Shown piece by piece: positions 18,915-34,238 of a stretch of DNA of 37,823 nt. The notes under the pieces were generated by a model that was given only the letters and a program-made list of their open reading frames with translations, was not told the DNA's origin and did no database searches. Each line of letters opens with the position of its first letter. Position 1 is the first letter of the stretch. This DNA comes from a virus (taxonomy: Duplodnaviria; Heunggongvirae; Uroviricota; Caudoviricetes): IMG/VR virus record IMGVR_UViG_2917855067_000005; one strand, written 5' to 3'. The position numbers and the translations under genes were made by a program.

Positions 18915-20647
18915 TTAAAGCGAGCGGATCCCGTAGGACTCAATGTGGTCAGACAGCGTGTCTTCTTTCTCGTACAGCATGGCTCTGCCAACCGCCATAA
19001 TCAGCGCAACTGCACCATCGATTTTGTTTTCCGCCTGCTCTTTGACGGGTTTCACCACATCATCGTTACCCGGAATGGTTTTTCCGACCACGTTGCCGAT
19101 ACACCAGGTCATGATGGGATTGCCATCATGATGAAAGCGCCCCGATTCAATTGCCGCTTCCAGCTCTTTCATCGGGTCGGACATGTTGGTGTAGTTCTGA
19201 ATGATGGTGACGGGGTTCAGGTCTTCATCAGCAAGGTCATGTGACAACCCGGTCGCCCCGAAGGGGTCGATGGGTGACTCGCTGACCGGGCTGATTTTGT
19301 TCGCCGCTTTGGCCTCTTCGAGGATGTAGCGATAATCCACCTCTGCACCATCGGTAACGGTCAGGACGCCCATTTCCACCCATTTCTGAAAGCGTTCGGC
19401 TGTCCGGCGATCTTCATTTTTCTCGACGCTATACACCGTGTCATACGGTACCCAGAAACGCGGGGCCACACTGTAGTAATGCGTTTTACCGTCAATCTCG
19501 CGGGTATAAAGTCGCGCCATGCTGTTCATATCCAGCTTACGCGCCAGGTCAAAGGCCAGAATGCACGGCTGCCCCTCGAACTGCTCAAGAGTCAGTGATT
19601 TATCCTCGCAGCTCTGCCAGCTCACCAGGTTGAAATACGCCGAACGCGCCGACACCCAGATATTGAGGTGTTTTGTTTTAAAGACGTTTGCCAGACGGGC
19701 GTTATTTTTCGCACGCTGCTGCTGACTTAACAAAAATTCGCGATAAACCGACACGCCAATATTTGGATTGGCTTTTTCCAGCACCTGCGGGTCGGTCCAG
19801 TCGTCACCTTCATCAACGGTATAGATGATCCCGAACAGTTCATCGTTAGGCACCGAGCCGTTGAGCATCTCGATGACTTCCCGCCGTTTGTCGTAGCACG
19901 GCCCCTCAATGTTGTACCCGGCGGTAGTGATAGCCCACATCAGTGGCTGACGTCGCGCCCCCATCCCGGTAAGCATCGTGGTGTAAAGCGCATCTGTGGC
20001 GTGCTCGTGATATTCATCCACCACCGCACAGTGGGGTGATGAACCATCACCGGGGTTACCGATCAGCGGTTCAAAACGCGCACCATCCTCCGGACGGTTC
20101 ATGTTTGAGGCGTTAACCTCAATCCCGAACGCTTCCGTCAGCATGGGTGTGCGTTTACACATCAGTCTTGCCGGACGAAAGACTTCCCATGCCTGTTTCT
20201 CCGTCGTGGCACCGGAATACACTTCCGCGCCGAACTCGTTATCACAGGCAAAACAATACAGGCGACACCGGCAGAGATTGCCGATTTGCCGTTCTTACGG
20301 GGGATTTCGGTATACACCTCCCGGAAGCGGCGCAGCCGGGAGCCTTTATTGACCCAGCCAAACGCGCAGCAGATCACAAAGAGCTGCCACGGCTCCAGCG
20401 TGATGGGCATCCTCTTAAATGCCCACTCACCCTTGGTGTGCGGCAACAGCTGAATAAATTTGGCGGCCCGTTCAGCCAGGTCCTTGTCGAAGCGGTAACG
20501 AAACGACTTACTTTTTTCCGCCATCAGGTCATCAAGATGGCGCTGGCAGGCCTGAATCACAAACTGGCAGGCCACAATCTTTCCGCGCACGACATCCCGG
20601 GCATACTGATTGGCAGCATTTACGTTGGGGTAAGATTTCCGGCTCAT
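18915..20647 (-). CDS. Terminase large subunit, interrupted by a 1-nt frameshift in an A4/T4 run (plus 20250..20253)
   Basis: Track ORFs 20162..20647 (N-terminal, [12 protein letters not shown]) and 18915..20222; adding one T gives a continuous ...[21 protein letters not shown].... Confidence 0.85.
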
Positions 20648-21261: not shown

Positions 21262-21612
21262 TTACTTCAGCCGTTCACGGGCCGTCTTCGCCTTATGACA
21301 CGGCCAGCACAGACTCTGCAGATTACTGTCGGCATCAGAGCCGCCATGCGCTTTAGGGATGATGTGGTCAACAGTTTTCGCCTCACGCGCCACACCGGCA
21401 CGCAGACATAACTGACACAGGCCTTTGTCACGCTTGAGCACACGTTCACGGATAACATCCCATTTCGAACCATAACCGCGCTGGTGACGGGACAGGCCGC
21501 GTTGATATTGGATCCATCCTTCATCACGATGTTTAACACAATACCCAGAATTGTCTGTTGTAGTCCCCGCACACCCGTGCTTACGACATGCTCGGGGAAT
21601 TCGTGACGCCAT
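21262..21612 (-). CDS. HNH endonuclease (packaging-associated)
   Basis: 116-aa ORF with Cys/His pattern CQLC ... DHIIPKAHGG ... N ... CWPCH; directly upstream of the small terminase. Confidence 0.8.
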   Translation of the reverse strand: MASRIPRACRKHGCAGTTTDNSGYCVKHRDEGWIQYQRGLSRHQRGYGSKWDVIRERVLKRDKGLCQLCLRAGVAREAKTVDHIIPKAHGGSDADSNLQSLCWPCHKAKTARERLK

Positions 21613-21624
21613 ATTATCTCCAAT

Positions 21625-21644
21625 AAAAAACCCGCTAAAGCGGG
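21625..21644 (-). terminator. Intrinsic terminator after the 141-aa moron gene
   Basis: Minus-strand CCCGC-UUUA-GCGGG then UUUUUU, starting 5 nt after the stop codon and just before the HNH RBS. Confidence 0.65.
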
Positions 21645-21649
21645 TCTTG

Positions 21650-22075
21650 TTAGCAACTTATTAACATTGCATGGTTATTTAGCATCCAGTCGTTTAACTC
21701 ATTTTCTGCCCATTCTACGTCTATAAGCACTTTGCATAAATTCGAAGGTTTAAGAAGTTCACCTGCTGACGCCCCTGAAGGCCAAAAATGCACAGCTACA
21801 TAATTTTGAGTTACATATGTTTTTTTTATAGTTTGTCGTGTTTCGATTGAGACAATCACATCCGATATTTTACATTTTCTTTTTTTGACCAAAAAATCAT
21901 GAATTCGCTCCCCAACAGCTTCCTTAAAAATAGTTGAGTTAGCATGTTGATTAAATGTTGCAAAAATAAGTTTAAGTTCGCAATTTAAAGCCTTAGCTTT
22001 TGATATTCCTAATTGCATAGCCTTGTGAGCAGCAAGTATATGATTGCTATTTGCCCTGATTACATACTTTTCCAT
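21650..22075 (-). CDS. Hypothetical protein (AT-rich moron)
   Basis: 141-aa ORF in a visibly AT-rich block with its own terminator and an AT-rich 375-nt upstream region; no family recognised. Confidence 0.6.
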   Translation of the reverse strand: MEKYVIRANSNHILAAHKAMQLGISKAKALNCELKLIFATFNQHANSTIFKEAVGERIHDFLVKKRKCKISDVIVSIETRQTIKKTYVTQNYVAVHFWPSGASAGELLKPSNLCKVLIDVEWAENELNDWMLNNHAMLISC

Positions 22076-22449
22076 ATTCGCTCTCCCAAAAAATCAGAGG
22101 TATATAATAAGAACATAGAAAAATTTATCAATAAAATCAGCAACAAAAGTAGCTCATCAGCATTACTGACTAAAAGTTCTAATATCATTAACAAACGAGT
22201 ATTGCACTGTACACTTTTTCAAAACGGACAAGTCTTTCAGATACTCACATCGACAACCAATAAAGAACACCAATTGTACTCATCTCGCGTCAATTCATTG
22301 TAGCCTGTGAGCCTATGCTTTCTGATCACAACGCTACCAGTATTATCGCTTCAAGCAGGAATGAACTCCGTATTTTAGCATCCAAAGGAATTAGCTGTCC
22401 CCAAACAGGGTATTAGAACGTAACAATATCACTTTACTAATATAATCAG

Positions 22450-22911
22450 CTAGTTAACACACTGCGCTCTAATGTATTCCTGTAGGTAATTAACCTGTGC
22501 AGTTATCTTGTCGATTCCACTTCGGAGGCGGTAATAATTGAGTTCAGAATCTGCTGTAAGTCTTGGGCTTTCTCCATCGCCCATGCCGCTGGCTCTGGTC
22601 GTTGATTTTGCACAGGTGGCGGCGACTTGCAGGCGCTTACGCCCAGCAGAAACATCAGCACGGAGGCTTTCGATAGTCGCGTTAGCATCAGCAAGCTCCT
22701 TTGTGTATCTGGCGTCAAGTTCTGCTACGTCACGTTGACGCTTCTGCATATCAGAAATGGTCGCCATAGCCGAATCTAATGCCATAGCATTCTCATCACG
22801 CTGCTTTTTGTATTCAATAACTTTATTGTGGTAATGATTCGCTGAACAGATAGAAGAACCGATGACAGTAAAGAAGAATGCAGAGATAGCCAGCTTATAG
22901 CTCAACTTCAT
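22450..22911 (-). CDS. Rz: i-spanin Rz
   Basis: 153-aa ORF resembling lambda Rz (N-terminal TM, ...YKKQRDENA...MQKRQRDVAELDARYTKELADA...). Confidence 0.85.
   Translation of the reverse strand: MKLSYKLAISAFFFTVIGSSICSANHYHNKVIEYKKQRDENAMALDSAMATISDMQKRQRDVAELDARYTKELADANATIESLRADVSAGRKRLQVAATCAKSTTRASGMGDGESPRLTADSELNYYRLRSGIDKITAQVNYLQEYIRAQCVN
22503..22688 (-). CDS. Rz1: o-spanin Rz1 (lipoprotein embedded in Rz in the +1 frame)
   Basis: Embedded ORF with lipobox LLGVSAC and proline-rich stretch KSPPPVQNQRPEP; start chosen at MLTRLSKASV. Confidence 0.6.
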   Translation of the reverse strand: MLTRLSKASVLMFLLGVSACKSPPPVQNQRPEPAAWAMEKAQDLQQILNSIITASEVESTR

Positions 22912-23371
22912 TTACCACCCCACCAGCCTCTTTAAACCGGGAAATCAGGTCACCGATTTTATGTTCATACTGACCGTAACCTGCACCAGGTAACGACGCC
23001 CAGATATTGCTGCAACGATCGATAGCCTGACGAATATCGCCGCGATCAATCATCGGTAAAGCGCCACGCTCTTTAATCTGCTGTAATGCAACAGCATCCT
23101 GGCTTTTAGGAGAGAAGTCTGTCAGCCCTAACTGCTTGCGGTAAGCATCCCACCAGCGCGAAAGAAGTTGATAACGGCCTGCAGCTGTTGATTTGAGTTT
23201 CGGGTTTAGCGTGACAAGCTTGCGAGGGTGATCGGAGTAATCAGTGAAGAGTTCTCCACCGACAATAACATCATAACCGTGGTTACGTGTCGGTTGTCGC
23301 CCGTTATCCGTTCCTTCTGACCATGCCACCATATCGAGGAAAGCTTTACGCTGGGAATTTAGTACCTGCAT
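22895..23371 (-). CDS. R: Endolysin, lambda R-type lytic transglycosylase
   Basis: 158-aa ORF closely matching my recollection of lambda R (NSQRKAFLDMVAWSEGTDNGRQPTRNHGYDVIVGGELFTDYSDHPRKLVTLNPKLKST). Confidence 0.9.
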   Translation of the reverse strand: MQVLNSQRKAFLDMVAWSEGTDNGRQPTRNHGYDVIVGGELFTDYSDHPRKLVTLNPKLKSTAAGRYQLLSRWWDAYRKQLGLTDFSPKSQDAVALQQIKERGALPMIDRGDIRQAIDRCSNIWASLPGAGYGQYEHKIGDLISRFKEAGGVVNEVEL

Positions 23372-23374
23372 AAA

Positions 23375-23701
23375 TTACTCCTTAGAGCCACCAAACTTGT
23401 TACCGATTACTCGCATTGCAGCCCCACGAATAGCATCGACACCGATCAGCCCCACCCCACCACCAATGGCAACAGATAGTGATTTAGGCCATCCGACATA
23501 CTCAAGCGCGGATGCAAATGTCAGCGTCAGAGCGCCACAGAGTAAAATCTCAAGCGTTTTTCGCTTCCAGCCACCACCACCGCCAAAATAGGCAATGCGC
23601 AAGCCAGCCATAACGATCGACATAATCACTGCGCCCAGTGGTGTGTCTCCACGCCACCAGCTCTGGACCAACTCCAGCCAGGTATTTGGGTTATGAGGCA
23701 T
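23375..23701 (-). CDS. Holin (three predicted TM segments)
   Basis: 108-aa ORF immediately upstream of the endolysin with three hydrophobic stretches and a charged C-terminal tail. Confidence 0.7.
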   Translation of the reverse strand: MPHNPNTWLELVQSWWRGDTPLGAVIMSIVMAGLRIAYFGGGGGWKRKTLEILLCGALTLTFASALEYVGWPKSLSVAIGGGVGLIGVDAIRGAAMRVIGNKFGGSKE

Positions 23702-23852
23702 TTGTAGTTATCTCTCACCTCGCTGATACAGCAGGTGCAAATTGAGGGAACATCATGTACAGCAAATTAGAAGCGGAAACGTCAAAGAAGCCGAACCAAT
23801 GGATAACTGCGGAATAGACCAGGACCAACGAATCCCCAGCCCCAGAAACGAC

Positions 23853-23876
23853 AAAACCCGCTCAACGGCGGGTTTA
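23853..23876 (-). terminator. Hairpin with U-rich tail upstream of the lysis genes (possible tR'-like late terminator)
   Basis: Minus-strand AAACCCGC-CGUUGA-GCGGGUUU followed by UGUCGUUUCU. Confidence 0.4.
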
Positions 23877-23991
23877 AGCTGTGTGGCGAAGTAACCACTC
23901 TTAACAGAGTACTGTATTTTTTGCGTACGCATTAGTATTTTTTGAAGTATTATCAACACCAATTGTTCAAAACCATTAAAAGGATGTTGTT

Positions 23992-25026
23992 ATGACTGCA
24001 TCAGCGACCCCCACTAATATCACTCATAAGTTTATTGTTCACATTATGAACAAGGAACAACAGGGGTTAGCCACCATTATTCCTTGTCCTTCAGAAAAAC
24101 CTGTTCAGCAAGCATCAAAAGACCTCTCTAACGCACTTACTGAAAGGTACTCTGGGAGAGCAGGTAAAGGATATGGGAAATTTGAAGATGACCGCGATAG
24201 TTACCCTATGGGTAATATCGTTGATGATTATTTCGTAAATAAAACACATAGTTTTTATGATACTAGTATCCGAATGATCAATCATTTAAAAGCCAGAGCC
24301 GATGATGAATCAATGTCTACTGGTGGTTATGTAATAATTGCCCATAATGAGGTAAATGGAAATCATTATTTGATGGTTGCAATCCTAACTTCAGCAGTTG
24401 GCTCTTCAGTCCACGATTTTGAAATTCAAGAAAGTGAATATCTAGACATTGCTAAACTTCGAGTAGCGGGACGAATTGACTTAACTGGGCGCCAGAATGG
24501 CAAAGAGAGATATATTAGCTTTCTAAAGGGGCAAAATTCAGTAGCAGGTTATTTCAAAAAGTTTTTAGGTTGCAACGATATTCTAATTGCCAAACAAGAA
24601 ACAACAAAATTACGGAATGCACTTTTAGAATTTGCTACTGAAAGAGGTTTTGAACCAGAGGCACGTGAAGAGTTCCTAAATAAGGCTCATGAAAAATTAA
24701 AAAATTTAAATCGTTCTGGTGAAACTTTCGACACTCAAATTTTTGCAAACGAGATATGGCCAACTGCTCCTGAGTTGTTAGTTGAAAAGTTAACCAATGA
24801 CGATCTGGAGTTCTCTGATGGGTTCGTGCCTGATGGCAACGTTATACGTGGGCTTGTTAGTTTCAAAGGAAAGTCCAAACATTGGTCTCTGAAATTCGAG
24901 CGTGCGGCCTTGCATGATGGCAGCGTTCTTTATGATTCAGAAAACGATAAATTGATACTTACCGAGATTCCGGATACGCTAAGATCAGAGATTTTATCAG
25001 AATTAGGTGAAGAGGATGAGCAGTAA
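23992..25026 (+). CDS. Nucleoid-associated protein YejK/NdpA-like (NA37 family) homolog, phage-borne
   Basis: 344-aa ORF with AAGGA RBS; central region GGYVIIAHNEVNGNHYLMVAILTSAVG ... YLDIAKLRVAGRIDLTGRQNGKERYISFLKGQNSVAGYFKKFLG parallels my recollection of E. coli YejK; visibly AT-rich. Confidence 0.68.
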   Translation: MTASATPTNITHKFIVHIMNKEQQGLATIIPCPSEKPVQQASKDLSNALTERYSGRAGKGYGKFEDDRDSYPMGNIVDDYFVNKTHSFYDTSIRMINHLKARADDESMSTGGYVIIAHNEVNGNHYLMVAILTSAVGSSVHDFEIQESEYLDIAKLRVAGRIDLTGRQNGKERYISFLKGQNSVAGYFKKFLGCNDILIAKQETTKLRNALLEFATERGFEPEAREEFLNKAHEKLKNLNRSGETFDTQIFANEIWPTAPELLVEKLTNDDLEFSDGFVPDGNVIRGLVSFKGKSKHWSLKFERAALHDGSVLYDSENDKLILTEIPDTLRSEILSELGEEDEQ

Positions 25027-26194
25027 AAATCAGAGAACCTTCAAAGACTTAGTGACTATTTACAAGGCCGCTACATTTGCAGGTACCCTATCTGAAGCAT
25101 CACTCATTCTTTCAAACGAGGAGCTCTGTGACATCATCAACGATATCACAGAGAATCCCCATGATTTTGGCATCACCCTTGAATCTGGCAACATTGAGTT
25201 AGGCCAAACTATAACCTTACATATAACCCCCCCCAAATTACGATTGGGGCAGCTACATTTCTCTTTTAATGAGTATTTAAAAAATCCTAAAAATAGGATA
25301 AAGGAAGCCAGTAACTTCTTTATAATCGAACTTAATTATCACAACAGGGATAAAAAGTCGCCTGCTATTATATCCAAGTACAGAGATGTTTTGAGCTTAA
25401 TTACTTTATTCAAAGATTGTTCTGCTTATTTAGATGAAACAAATTTTGAATTGGTATTCGTCGAATCCAACGTACTAAAAATTCCAGTAAATTATTCTAG
25501 CGATGATCTTATGAATGTTAATGGAGATCTGATTCATAATTTGATCGCAAACTTTGCAGAAGATACGCATAAAGATCAAAAACTTACTATTTTAGCAAGT
25601 AGTATAAAATCATCATGTGAATCTAAAACTAAAGAAACCTCTTTTTCCTTCATGTTAAGGGATTTAGGACAACTTTATGAAAGTTATCAAAAAGGATACA
25701 AAGTATTCGTTTCTGGTTTTTCTTACGAGAAAATACTGGATCAGTTACGAGTAGCCAAAATAGAAGAGATGGGGAAAATACATAAAGTATTCAGTGACAT
25801 ACAAAAATCAGATATTAGGTATCCCCTCGCAACAATTATCGTTGCGACTCAAATGAAGCAGGCTAATGGTTGGGATAGTCAAGCATTAATAAACACAGCT
25901 GTAGTGTTGGGTGCATTGTTCTTCACTATTATGATTATATTTGTTCTATTTAATCAATGGCAAACTTTAACAGCAATAAATGATGAGTTAAATCATAAAA
26001 AACAACAAGCAGAATATAACTTCAAGGCTATTTACGAAGATATAAAGGATACATTTGATAGTTTAACCACAAGATTGCTTGTTCAGAAAGTTGTTTTTGC
26101 CTCATTAGGAATTATAGTTTTATGTGGCTTATATCTTACATTTAGATTCTACTTTTTACTTACACCTTATGCTATTACATATTTATTTATCTGA
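25016..26194 (+). CDS. Hypothetical protein with two C-terminal transmembrane helices (partner of the YejK-like gene)
   Basis: Track ORF from GTG 25007; ATG at 25016 has AGGTGA 6 nt upstream; overlaps the upstream gene; hydrophobic segments NTAVVLGALFFTIMIIFVLF and VVFASLGIIVLCGLYLTFRFYFLL; AT-rich. Confidence 0.65.
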   Translation: MSSKNQRTFKDLVTIYKAATFAGTLSEASLILSNEELCDIINDITENPHDFGITLESGNIELGQTITLHITPPKLRLGQLHFSFNEYLKNPKNRIKEASNFFIIELNYHNRDKKSPAIISKYRDVLSLITLFKDCSAYLDETNFELVFVESNVLKIPVNYSSDDLMNVNGDLIHNLIANFAEDTHKDQKLTILASSIKSSCESKTKETSFSFMLRDLGQLYESYQKGYKVFVSGFSYEKILDQLRVAKIEEMGKIHKVFSDIQKSDIRYPLATIIVATQMKQANGWDSQALINTAVVLGALFFTIMIIFVLFNQWQTLTAINDELNHKKQQAEYNFKAIYEDIKDTFDSLTTRLLVQKVVFASLGIIVLCGLYLTFRFYFLLTPYAITYLFI

Positions 26195-26218
26195 CGGCCA
26201 ATATGGCCGTCTAATAAA

Positions 26219-26567
26219 TTACCCATGTATTATATATATAACTGCATCAATAAATCCCAATGCAGCTTGCAACTTTTTTCTTATAGTCCCATCAGAGCAT
26301 TTTCTCTTCTTCGCAATAGTGCGTAATGAGATACCGATAACAAAGTGAGCAATGATTAGCTCATATTCTTCAGGCCTATATTTACGCAACCGAGCCACAC
26401 AACTGTCTATCATAATGCCTTCGTCATCATCACACTGAATCCGGGACTTTTTTGCCATGAGGTAAAAGTCCCTTGAAGCCAGCGGCTACCGGTTGCCAGT
26501 CCACTCCGCTATTGTCTGAAGCAGCCCAAGCTCCCCAACGATCCATTACTTCATACATATCACGCAT
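26219..26567 (-). CDS. Q: Late-gene antiterminator Q-like protein, interrupted by a 1-nt frameshift in a T6 run (plus 26448..26453)
   Basis: Upstream frame [40 protein letters not shown] continues in track ORF 26219..26458 ([21 protein letters not shown]...); GGAGAAAG RBS before the ATG at 26567. Confidence 0.68.
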
Positions 26568-26584: not shown

Positions 26585-27580
26585 TCAGGCCAGCACACCA
26601 ATTGCCAGCGCACGATCGATAAAACGAAATATCAGCTCCAGCTGGGAGCCATACATCTCTTCAAATGCCACGGTATCCGCATGCAGCTCGTCGTGATGCT
26701 TTCTGCACAAAGGCAACACAAAGAGGTCATGCGCTTTTGTCCCCATTCCACCCTGACCATGGCCTATCAGGTGGTGGGGATCATCAGCGGGCTTTCCACA
26801 ACATGCACACGGCTGTGTCTTAACCCAGCGCGTGTACTTTTCATTAACCCAGCGGCGACGTTTTGGGCGTAACATAAAAGACTCCGGTGACTCCGGATCC
26901 ACTTTCAGCGCCAGCACCTTTTTCGCCTTATCTTGGATGATGCTGGTGGCAGGAACCGAAGGCACAAGGTCACTTTCCCGGGTGACAGACGGCACAACAG
27001 GCTTCGGTAATCTCAGTGCCTTACGGGCTGCACTTTCCGGTAAGGCATCCGCCAGGTCATTACGAATCAGCCACCAGCACAGTTCCGGCATTGTCACAAC
27101 GTGACTATCATCAAAACCGAGATCCCGACGCACGACAGACAACACCCAGCGGGCACAGTTATCCGTTGCCATTGATTCCAGCCGTTCCGTGAACTGGTCA
27201 CGCAGCTGGTTATCGCAGTGCCAGCACAGACGAATTGCTCCCGGAGCGTGCCGCATTGTGGTCATGTTCTCGCTGTGCCAGTCAGAATGAGGCCACTGAC
27301 AGCCCTTTTCACGAAGTAACCAGCTTTCAAGACATTCCACGCCACCAGCACGACGGATCACTGCCTCATTGCGGAACACGGTCCGAACGGCAGGATCATC
27401 CGCCAACGGTTGTGATGCCGCCGGAACGGCACCACTGGCGAAAGATGAATAACGTTCCGGCTCTGGCTCCAGCAGGACACGCCCCTGCATAAACAGGGGC
27501 ATCAGCTCTGAACCTGGCCTGAACAATACGATCCCCATACGCGGGGCAATTTCAGGGGTCAGTAGTGCTCTCACGGTCAC
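26585..27580 (-). CDS. DUF968-like protein with C-terminal Cys/His (HNH-like) motif
   Basis: 331-aa ORF; C-terminus [14 protein letters not shown] ... [12 protein letters not shown]; typical lambdoid nin-region position. Confidence 0.6.
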
Positions 27581-27581
27581 C

Positions 27582-28379
27582 TCAATGAACGGTATCGAGC
27601 AGCTTTAACAGCTCAGGGAATCGGGATTCGAAGAAATGCGGCTGCGTCTCGCGCGGATTTGCGGGACTGGTGATGTTCTTGCCGAACATGCAGCCTTTCG
27701 CTGTCAGCGACCAGAATTTTTTGATGTTGTTAATCGCGGTACGGCTGTATCGTTCGCGCTGCTCGACGATCCCCAGCTTCACCATCTGGTGATATGCCTG
27801 ATTAGCCGTCAGGCGGATACCATACTGTTTCAACAGTGCACTCAGTGACAGTGTCGGGCGACTTGAGCCATCGTGTGCATCAGCAGGAGCATCAATGGCA
27901 TAGCGGGGTGCCAGATTCGGTAAGCCAACAGCCTCCTGGAGTTTCTGACAGGCACCAAGCACTGATGAGTTAGACAGGTTTAATTCCCGGCGCATAAAGT
28001 CCAGCAGGATCACACCAGCCTGCATCTTGTCAGCAGCCTGCCCGGATAATTTTTCCGGTGCGCTGGTTACCATATCGAAAGTACGGATCACCTTCAGATG
28101 GAATGACGGGCTGATCCACATTGCATAGGCATACACCAGTTCTTTGCAGACATACGTCCCTTGGTTATTTCCGCCACGAATAACGTTAACTGACTCTATA
28201 TTGACCGAGTTGCAAATCTGCAACTCGCTTATTAAACGTTCAGTTTGCTCATTGCGGAGCCAGAATGCAGGCTTATGCTTATCCAGAGAACCGGCAGCCC
28301 TGTGTAGATCGTTCAGGCTGTAACGCCCATAAGCATCACGACGAACTTCAATACCATCAATGACCATCAGATTATTCAT
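27582..28379 (-). CDS. KilA-N domain protein (putative antirepressor-type)
   Basis: 265-aa ORF; N-terminus MVIDGIEVRRDAYGRYSLNDLHRAAG resembles KilA-N domains. Confidence 0.6.
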   Translation of the reverse strand: MNNLMVIDGIEVRRDAYGRYSLNDLHRAAGSLDKHKPAFWLRNEQTERLISELQICNSVNIESVNVIRGGNNQGTYVCKELVYAYAMWISPSFHLKVIRTFDMVTSAPEKLSGQAADKMQAGVILLDFMRRELNLSNSSVLGACQKLQEAVGLPNLAPRYAIDAPADAHDGSSRPTLSLSALLKQYGIRLTANQAYHQMVKLGIVEQRERYSRTAINNIKKFWSLTAKGCMFGKNITSPANPRETQPHFFESRFPELLKLLDTVH

Positions 28380-33952: not shown

Positions 33953-34238
33953 TTCTTTTCCTTTTGCGTTGTTGGGGATAACCAGATTAACCGAATCCTT
34001 GTTGTTGGGGAATAACCAGGTCCACCTCGCCTGATGTGGCTAAAAGCAGGCACATAACTGCTAAGTATTTTCAACCAGAGAGAATCCTTAGCGTTGTGGT
34101 GAATGCGGCTCAGCGCACGCGGGTTAAGGTTGAGGCTGACAGTCGACCTTCTGTGGATACCCACCCGTCTGGTGTGCAACCTTCGCCAGGCACCGGGAGG
34201 CACCCGGCACCACAACTTTATGCTGTGTGTAGTCTTGA

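Follow-up and report, generated by a model that had tools for sequence, protein, structure and literature searches.

We examined a two-gene cassette in a 37,823-nucleotide (nt) stretch of Caudoviricetes DNA, an Escherichia coli prophage (IMG/VR record IMGVR_UViG_2917855067_000005; the whole stretch is referred to as the window). The cassette occupies the gap between the holin gene and the antiterminator gene Q, and this gap, counted from the holin start to the Q stop, corresponds exactly to positions 23702–26218. Two open reading frames (ORFs) on the plus strand fill it. Gene 1 (23992–25026) encodes a YejK-like nucleoid-associated protein of 344 amino acids (aa) and gene 2 (25016–26194) encodes a protein of 392 aa that is a candidate membrane effector. 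Translation of gene 2 could start at the ATG at 25016, which is the choice made by RefSeq in near-identical copies, or at an alternative open GTG at 25007, giving an overlap between the two genes of 11 nt or 20 nt, respectively. The GC content of the cassette was 35.4%, compared to 50.9% in the remainder of the window, and the cassette was the 2.2-kb stretch with the lowest GC content in the window. The initial annotation of this DNA had described two overlapping plus-strand genes between Q and the lysis genes that are more AT-rich than the phage genes around them, in good agreement with the coordinates, strands and base composition given here.

The gene 1 protein is a member of the NA37 family. 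It matched the Pfam NA37 profile (PF04245) with an E-value of 8.3e-69 and a score of 232.9 bits (cut-off 24.6), and this match ran from end to end, with residues 15–330 aligned to profile positions 1–324 of 325. Further matches were obtained to PHROG 3767, annotated as 'nucleoid associated protein' (E = 4e-80), and to the solved structure of E. coli YejK, 9be2 (E = 1.7e-19). The score against the NCBIfam equivalog model for YejK (NF001557) was 164.8 bits and thus far below the cut-off of 341 bits. Hence, gene 1 is a diverged paralogue of YejK and not the housekeeping protein, as had been proposed before the profile searches were run. Gene 1 and chromosomal YejK/NdpA (9be2, NF001557) have the same fold family over their full length, but gene 1 differs in its sub-equivalog score, its AT-richness, its location on a prophage, and its constant partnership with a gene for a membrane protein. 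The protein is 100% identical to RefSeq entry WP_000127202.1, which represents the common allele. Its N-terminus begins with MTASATPTNITHKF and has no cysteine pairs. The ATG of gene 1 is preceded by a ribosome-binding site, AAGGA, that was rated good.

For gene 2, no Pfam family was found, either with the protein alone or in a scan of 70 members of its family, which returned noise only. A match to PHROG 5023, a family with no function attached, had an E-value of 1e-72. A structural model of the gene 2 protein was built with AlphaFold2 (AF2) from an alignment of 70 sequences (mean predicted local distance difference test score of 83). In this model, an alpha/beta domain (residues 1–215) is followed by a long helix (217–266), a short hydrophobic helix, and a helical hairpin (288–335 and 337–382). 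The alpha/beta domain, delimited by AF2 secondary structure and encoded on the plus strand at 25016–25660, is predicted to be soluble. Two membrane helices are predicted in the C-terminal part, both encoded on the plus strand. The first comprises residues 288–316 (25877–25963), where Kyte-Doolittle windows exceeded 1.6 and AF2 predicted a helix, and the second comprises residues 350–384 (26063–26167), based on hydrophobicity and AF2. These hydrophobic segments form the outer halves of the AF2 helical hairpin, and hydrophobic segments near both positions were present in 70 of the 70 aligned family members. In the topology that we infer, the stretch of approximately 35 polar, helical residues that separates the two helices would make up the periplasmic tip of the hairpin. 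An unrecognised N-terminal domain followed by two C-terminal membrane helices was also what the initial annotation had seen in this protein, and no library recognises the N-terminal domain.

The most conserved motif of the family, FSDIQNQxLGIPVATIIVATQMK, lies right before the first membrane helix (25790–25858, plus strand), and its columns were invariant or at least 90% conserved across the 70 aligned sequences. A comparison of the family profile of gene 2 to PDB sequences yielded no match. Two known types of membrane protein were considered as relatives of gene 2 and rejected. No significant match was obtained to the CorA fold or to the CorA sequence family, which speaks against a CorA-type ion channel, and no SLATT-named family was matched in the Pfam scan of the 70 members, which speaks against a SLATT two-helix pore effector. 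One of the 70 family members matched DUF4231 (E = 0.02), a family that we take to be SLATT-related.

The initial annotation had also treated a defence system based on a YejK-like protein as undescribed, and this does not hold. Such a system, DS-1, has been validated experimentally, a second description exists under the name PANGU, and NCBIfam contains models for the DS-1 proteins. DS-1 (working ID D390) is one of 42 new E. coli defence units validated in the DefensePredictor study (bioRxiv January 2025; Science April 2026, PMC13092281), where it was listed with a 'YejK nucleoid-associated domain' and shown to block phages. It consists of DS-1A (WP_000355468.1), an NA37 protein of 391 aa, and DS-1B (WP_000150292.1), a protein of 404 aa with a membrane region at residues 269–404, and the pair is protective when cloned by itself with its native promoter (PMC13092281). 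In Table S10 of the same paper, WP_000127202.1, which is the product of gene 1 in the window, appears as a 'predicted novel defense gene' with a log-odds of 9.1 (PMC13092281). Table S6 holds a single 'nucleoid' entry among the 94 units tested, and therefore the subfamily found in the window was apparently not assayed there.

Both proteins of the window are homologous to their DS-1 counterparts. In BLASTP, gene 1 aligned to DS-1A with 25% identity over 197 aa (E = 3e-10), and gene 2 aligned collinearly to DS-1B with 26% identity (E = 1e-5). When the gene 2 family profile was compared to DS-1B with hhalign, a probability of 95.8% and an E-value of 6.8e-9 were obtained over 265 columns, including the motif ahead of the first membrane helix, of which DS-1B has kept the core, S..NQ...L.IP.A. 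The NCBIfam models DS1_1_antiphage (NF053868) and DS1_2_antiphage (NF053869) matched gene 1 (E = 2.8e-15) and gene 2 (E = 3e-15), respectively. Apart from the motif, the window pair and DS-1 have in common that they are E. coli operons in which an NA37/YejK gene is followed by a gene for a protein of approximately 400 aa that is soluble in its N-terminal part and has membrane segments towards the C-terminus. They differ in that the identity is only about 25% and the scores are below the equivalog level. Gene 1 is also nearer to chromosomal YejK than to the DS-1A model, with 164.8 versus 56.2 bits. Judged from these sequence comparisons, the window pair is of the same superfamily and architecture as DS-1 and belongs to a different subfamily.

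The PANGU systems are two-gene systems based on YejK-like proteins, and in type II PANGU the nucleoid protein Pag2A is combined with the transmembrane effector Pag2B, which has a densely acidic N-terminal 'DNA-mimic' ('DMK') domain and a C-terminal membrane domain (bioRxiv 10.64898/2026.04.06.716658). In PANGU-Ecu, which is derived from uropathogenic E. coli, both genes are required, neither is toxic alone, and the phenotype is abortive infection against T4 (10.64898/2026.04.06.716658). Pag2A binds the N-terminal domain of Pag2B with a dissociation constant (KD) of 19 nM, Pag2A-GFP departs from the nucleoid upon T4 infection, and T4 escapers carry mutations in the host-DNA nuclease EndoII, while the mode of action of Pag2B is stated as unknown (10.64898/2026.04.06.716658). 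The window pair resembles type II PANGU in being a two-gene operon with a YejK-like protein in E. coli (with an 11-nt overlap where the definition of the system allows a gap of <40 bp) and in the partner protein, which combines a soluble N-terminal domain with a C-terminal membrane domain (two helices in 70 of 70 members). Relatives of the pair are likewise linked to restriction and other defence genes, and the slot of the window pair holds relatives of PDC-M53 and PD-Lambda-1 in other phages, described below. Gene 1 and gene 2 would be the counterparts of DS-1A and DS-1B or of Pag2A and Pag2B, with gene 1 as the presumed sensor. By analogy with Pag2B, the N-terminal domain of gene 2 (residues 1–215) is presumed to be where the nucleoid protein docks. 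PANGU-Ecu itself could belong to the window subfamily, to the DS-1 subfamily, or to a third one. Type I PANGU, in which Pag1A is combined with the GRel-type alarmone-synthetase toxin Pag1B, follows the same proposed sensor logic, i.e., release from degraded DNA and binding to an acidic domain, but its effector is a soluble nucleotide-modifying enzyme and not a membrane protein, with no homology to gene 2.

The two genes were always found together. In a scan of 80 loci from one genome per species, and in six further contexts that were checked by hand, an NA37 ORF was located directly upstream of the gene 2 relative and on the same strand in 80 out of 80 loci and in all six contexts. The pairing is hence obligate. 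Among the 80 loci, the stop and start codons overlapped by 8 nt in 38 cases, 11 nt in 15 cases, and 14 nt in 6 cases, and translational coupling of the two genes is probable. Pairwise identities of the two proteins were correlated (r = 0.89). The family is also large. In a word-indexed search, the relatives of gene 2 fell into 85 clusters, almost all of 380–420 aa and none with a Pfam domain, and an exhaustive profile search returned 1322 representatives (clusters at 50% identity) at E ≤ 1e-3, of which 437 were found at E ≤ 1e-30. The 80 scanned loci came from Gamma-, Beta- and Alphaproteobacteria, a Thermoanaerobaculia bin and a Candidatus Yonathbacteria bin. The occurrences of the pair outside Proteobacteria, including the one in a bin of the candidate phyla radiation, could be explained by horizontal transfer or by contamination during binning. 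The chromosome of Jeongeupia wiesaeckerbachi carries the pair twice, and the flanking ORFs appear identical at both sites, probably due to duplication of a prophage or mobile element.

The genomic surroundings of the pair were diverse. It was found between a type I restriction system and GmrSD, as cargo of a Tn7-like element adjoining TIR, BrxR and an Eco57I-like methylase, in an island bounded by serine recombinases, and in a phage-like region adjoining a lysozyme gene. It was also found in the same slot between Q and holin in temperate phages of Raoultella, Serratia and Klebsiella whose gene sets are otherwise different. The occurrence of the same pair in unrelated contexts, which had been suggested as a check of the initial annotation, is therefore documented for restriction islands, a Tn7-like element, a recombinase island and several phages. 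Among complete E. coli genomes, 16 of 5426 contained the cassette, and the three copies that were inspected occupied the same slot; the adjacent promoter-leader segment was present in approximately 900. With these frequencies, the pair is accessory cargo and not part of a conserved core set of phage genes.

The position of the cassette relative to the late promoter was assessed by comparison to related phages. The segment 23702–23956 of the window is 94.9% identical to Shigella phage SfII, in which the cargo differs. Within it, 23853–23943 is homologous to the segment that directly follows the Q stop codon in phage 1720a-02, and this 1720a-02-like segment is closed by a terminator-like hairpin on the minus (late) strand at 23875–23854. 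Based on this homology and the hairpin, the late promoter and its leader are most likely on the holin side of the cassette, and we assign a likely pR'-type late-promoter leader to 23853–23956 on the minus strand, which is kept beside different cargo in related phages. No late-promoter hexamers were found in a consensus scan of the gap. With the cassette on the Q side of the likely late promoter, late transcripts probably do not run through it, and the earlier description of the two genes as antisense to late transcription was probably wrong. The two genes would most likely point away from the late operon and towards Q. A relaxed hexamer scan showed a candidate weak sigma-70 promoter upstream of gene 1 (23926–23991, plus strand), with TACGCA, a 16-nt spacer and TATTAT, the latter being the –10 element at 23948–23953. 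At the other end, gene 2 and Q converge and are 24 nt apart, and most of this spacing is taken up by a perfect hairpin, GACGGCC-AATAT-GGCCGTC, with a 7-bp stem (26193–26211, read directly from the sequence). This hairpin may act as a bidirectional terminator; no T-run follows it on either strand.

The same gap carries other cargo in related phages. In SfII, it holds a two-gene cassette (genes 50 and 49) on the same strand as the window pair and opposite to the late genes, and the two proteins matched the PADLOC candidate system PDC-M53A/B with E-values of 2e-32 and 3e-54. In phiP27, the same position is occupied by L22, a GIY-YIG protein that matched PD-Lambda-1 (E = 2e-89). As in the window, both insertions have the Q stop on one side and the late-promoter leader on the other, and their proteins are unrelated to the window pair. 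With three different defence-type cargoes at one position, the region separating Q from the late promoter in P27/SfII-like prophages looks like a hotspot for defence cargo and can be added to those already known. Shiga toxin (Stx) genes in Stx phages are located downstream of the late promoter and are Q-dependent. The window cassette differs from this cargo in lying upstream of the late promoter region, and the proteins are unrelated.

Taken together, we consider it likely that the intact cassette is an anti-phage module of the DS-1/type II PANGU kind that protects the lysogen. The observations in support of this are the NA37 membership of gene 1, the homology of both proteins to DS-1, the membrane architecture of gene 2, the obligate pairing, the mobility of the pair, the slot shared with other defence genes, and the independent DefensePredictor score of the gene 1 protein. 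A role in defence or abortive infection, as suggested in the initial annotation, is by far the best-supported function, given the homology to the validated DS-1 and the PANGU-like architecture. The trigger, the binding step and the effect on the membrane are taken over from the literature on the related systems. By analogy, the pair would be expressed from the lysogen and guard it against other phages. In a healthy cell, the YejK-like protein would be retained on the chromosomal DNA, and the gene 2 protein would reside inactive in the inner membrane, its mildly acidic N-terminal domain facing the cytoplasm. Degradation of the host chromosome by an invading lytic phage would free the nucleoid protein, which could then bind to the N-terminal domain of the effector. 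The effector would subsequently harm the integrity of the membrane, such that the infected cell ceases to support phage growth.

Several points weigh against this interpretation. The scores against the DS-1 equivalog models were 56.2 bits each, compared to cut-offs of 330 and 315, and the N-terminal zinc ribbon of DS-1A (MDITCLECG...CDKCG) is absent from gene 1; residues 3–26 of DS-1A gave a weak NinF-like match in HHpred (probability 86.1). The comparison to Pag2A and Pag2B covers their described architecture. The densely acidic, DNA-like N-terminal domain of Pag2B has only a mildly acidic counterpart in the window, where the pre-membrane region of gene 2 has a net charge of –4, compared to –6 in the intact E. 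coli allele, a family median of –9, and –8 in DS-1B; an isoelectric point of approximately 5.3 was obtained. A Foldseek search of the gene 2 AF2 model against PDB and BFVD returned no match at E ≤ 1e-3. PADLOC v2 (2023), a library that predates DS-1 and PANGU, has no model matching either protein, and no experiment on the window subfamily was found in the literature. No strong promoter was detected, since a stricter hexamer scan of the gap was empty on both strands. A survey of neighbouring genes (23 loci, 138 ORFs, annotated with Pfam and PADLOC) showed a heterogeneous mix of phage, conjugative and defence genes and had no control set for comparison. Finally, eight residues of the signature motif are scrambled in the gene 2 allele of the window.

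This last point concerns the state of the particular copy in the window. Base-by-base comparison with E. coli 50EVA, where the pair is intact (WP_000127202.1 and WP_052516676.1) and the cassette is 99.8% identical, showed a compensated double frameshift within the conserved motif (25803–25828, plus strand). An extra A is present in an A-run at approximately 25803 and a G is absent at approximately 25826, after which the frame of gene 2 is restored, with eight residues changed in between. As a result, residues 264–271 read KSDIRYPL in the window instead of NQILGIPV in 50EVA, and the family conserves four of these positions at 90% or more. With the motif disrupted in this way, the window copy may be non-functional. 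Additional one-base homopolymer indels relative to 50EVA were found at 26448, 20260, 20772, 21236 and 31627. Q is split at approximately 26448, the large terminase gene is split at approximately 20260 (into 18915–20222 and 20162–20647), and the small terminase gene is altered at approximately 20772.

These indels could reflect either a decaying prophage or errors of sequencing or assembly in homopolymers. If the former applies, the family as a whole would be defensive, whereas gene 2 of the window would be inactivated and the prophage defective, a situation that is compatible with the cassette being of the DS-1/type II PANGU kind. We regard a dead copy as possible, though the less likely outcome. 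In its favour, the +1/–1 indel pair hits strongly conserved residues of a motif that is partly kept even in DS-1B, and Q and both terminase genes are affected as well. Moreover, a cluster of 30 E. coli sequences (11 contigs) covers no more of gene 2 than its C-terminal 267 residues, an indication that alleles in some strains are disrupted upstream. On the other hand, the isolated one-base indels lie in or beside homopolymer runs almost throughout (the exception is at 33966), which is the usual sign of sequencing or assembly error, the frame of gene 2 is regained after only eight residues, and gene 1 matches the common allele at 100% identity. The cassette is, in addition, 99.8% identical to intact copies in three complete genomes. 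The overall pattern favours errors.

Alternatively, the pair could serve the phage itself, for example by remodelling of the host nucleoid, by control of lysis timing from the membrane, or by superinfection exclusion without cell death, in which the DNA of related phages would be kept from entering at the membrane. Several temperate phages carry the pair beside Q and the lysis genes, a PHROG family exists for each of the two proteins, reverse-oriented NdpA/YejK genes with no assigned function have been noted in Pseudomonas temperate phages, and a membrane protein could in principle work at the cell envelope. However, the pair also occurs outside phages, between restriction systems, on a Tn7-like element and in an island with recombinases, and in E. 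coli the cassette is carried by just 16 of the approximately 900 genomes that have a related promoter-leader segment. The homologous DS-1 pair protects when cloned alone, with no phage needed, and the orientation and AT-richness of the cassette are typical of accessory prophage cargo ('morons'). A function for the phage is therefore considered improbable. A toxin–antitoxin addiction module that stabilises the prophage, with gene 2 as membrane toxin and gene 1 as antidote, would fit the tight coupling and overlap of the genes, their co-inheritance as a unit (r = 0.89) and the presence of one membrane protein, but we give it hardly any weight, as the single PANGU genes are non-toxic, both are needed and the authors argue against a classical toxin–antitoxin system (10.64898/2026.04.06.716658), while in the window the nucleoid protein gene is upstream and its product as large as the putative toxin, unlike typical antitoxins, and no toxin–antitoxin family was matched in Pfam, PADLOC and NCBIfam scans of both proteins.

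The cassette is flanked by the lysis genes and by Q. The first gene of the lysis cassette (23375–23701, minus strand) encodes a lambda-family holin, identified by Pfam Phage_holin_3_1 (E = 5.7e-25) and by the RefSeq annotation of relatives. The endolysin gene (22895–23371) was assigned from the RefSeq annotation of relatives, and the Rz gene (22450–22911) from Pfam Phage_lysis (Rz; E = 1.5e-38). On the other side, Q (26219–26567, minus strand; Phage_antitermQ, E = 2e-24) is broken by the extra homopolymer base mentioned above, and the match to the Pfam family is confined to a C-terminal ORF of 79 aa in the window; intact Q is annotated as 348 nt in E. coli 50EVA. Upstream of Q, a DUF968/HNH-like protein (331 aa; 26585–27580) and a KilA-N protein (27582–28379) are encoded, an arrangement that is kept in related E. 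coli, Raoultella and SfII prophages. We also observed a second AT-rich cargo slot (36.7% GC) at 21500–22450, between Rz and the HNH/terminase genes. Its ORF (21650–22075, minus strand, 141 aa) had no match in Pfam, PADLOC, PHROGs or NCBIfam and was present in only one complete E. coli genome, that of strain H22. At this second slot, iss/bor, a DUF6236 protein or a different hypothetical protein is found in related prophages.

Thus, the kind of system encoded by the cassette has already been reported independently by two groups (2025–2026), and the window pair adds a distinct subfamily to it. The initial annotation arrived at a DS-1/PANGU-type immune system from sequence alone, although the discovery itself had already been made. 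It is conceivable, but at present rather unlikely, that the subfamily is a functionally distinct branch with its own trigger or phage spectrum, whose function depends in part on where the cassette is placed. Expression would then take place in the lysogen, and upon induction, antiterminated early transcription passing Q would run into the cassette and shut it down. The phage would thereby turn off its own suicide system in the lytic cycle. More broadly, the interval from Q to the late promoter in this phage group would be a hotspot dedicated to exchangeable defence genes in a constrained orientation. For the effector, a conserved juxtamembrane motif is now defined, and the window offers a natural scrambled allele of it. 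The subfamily is widespread, with 1322 representatives, is approximately 25% identical to DS-1, and always comes with its own YejK-like gene. It hence provides a natural test of how general sensing by a nucleoid protein set free through DNA damage is.

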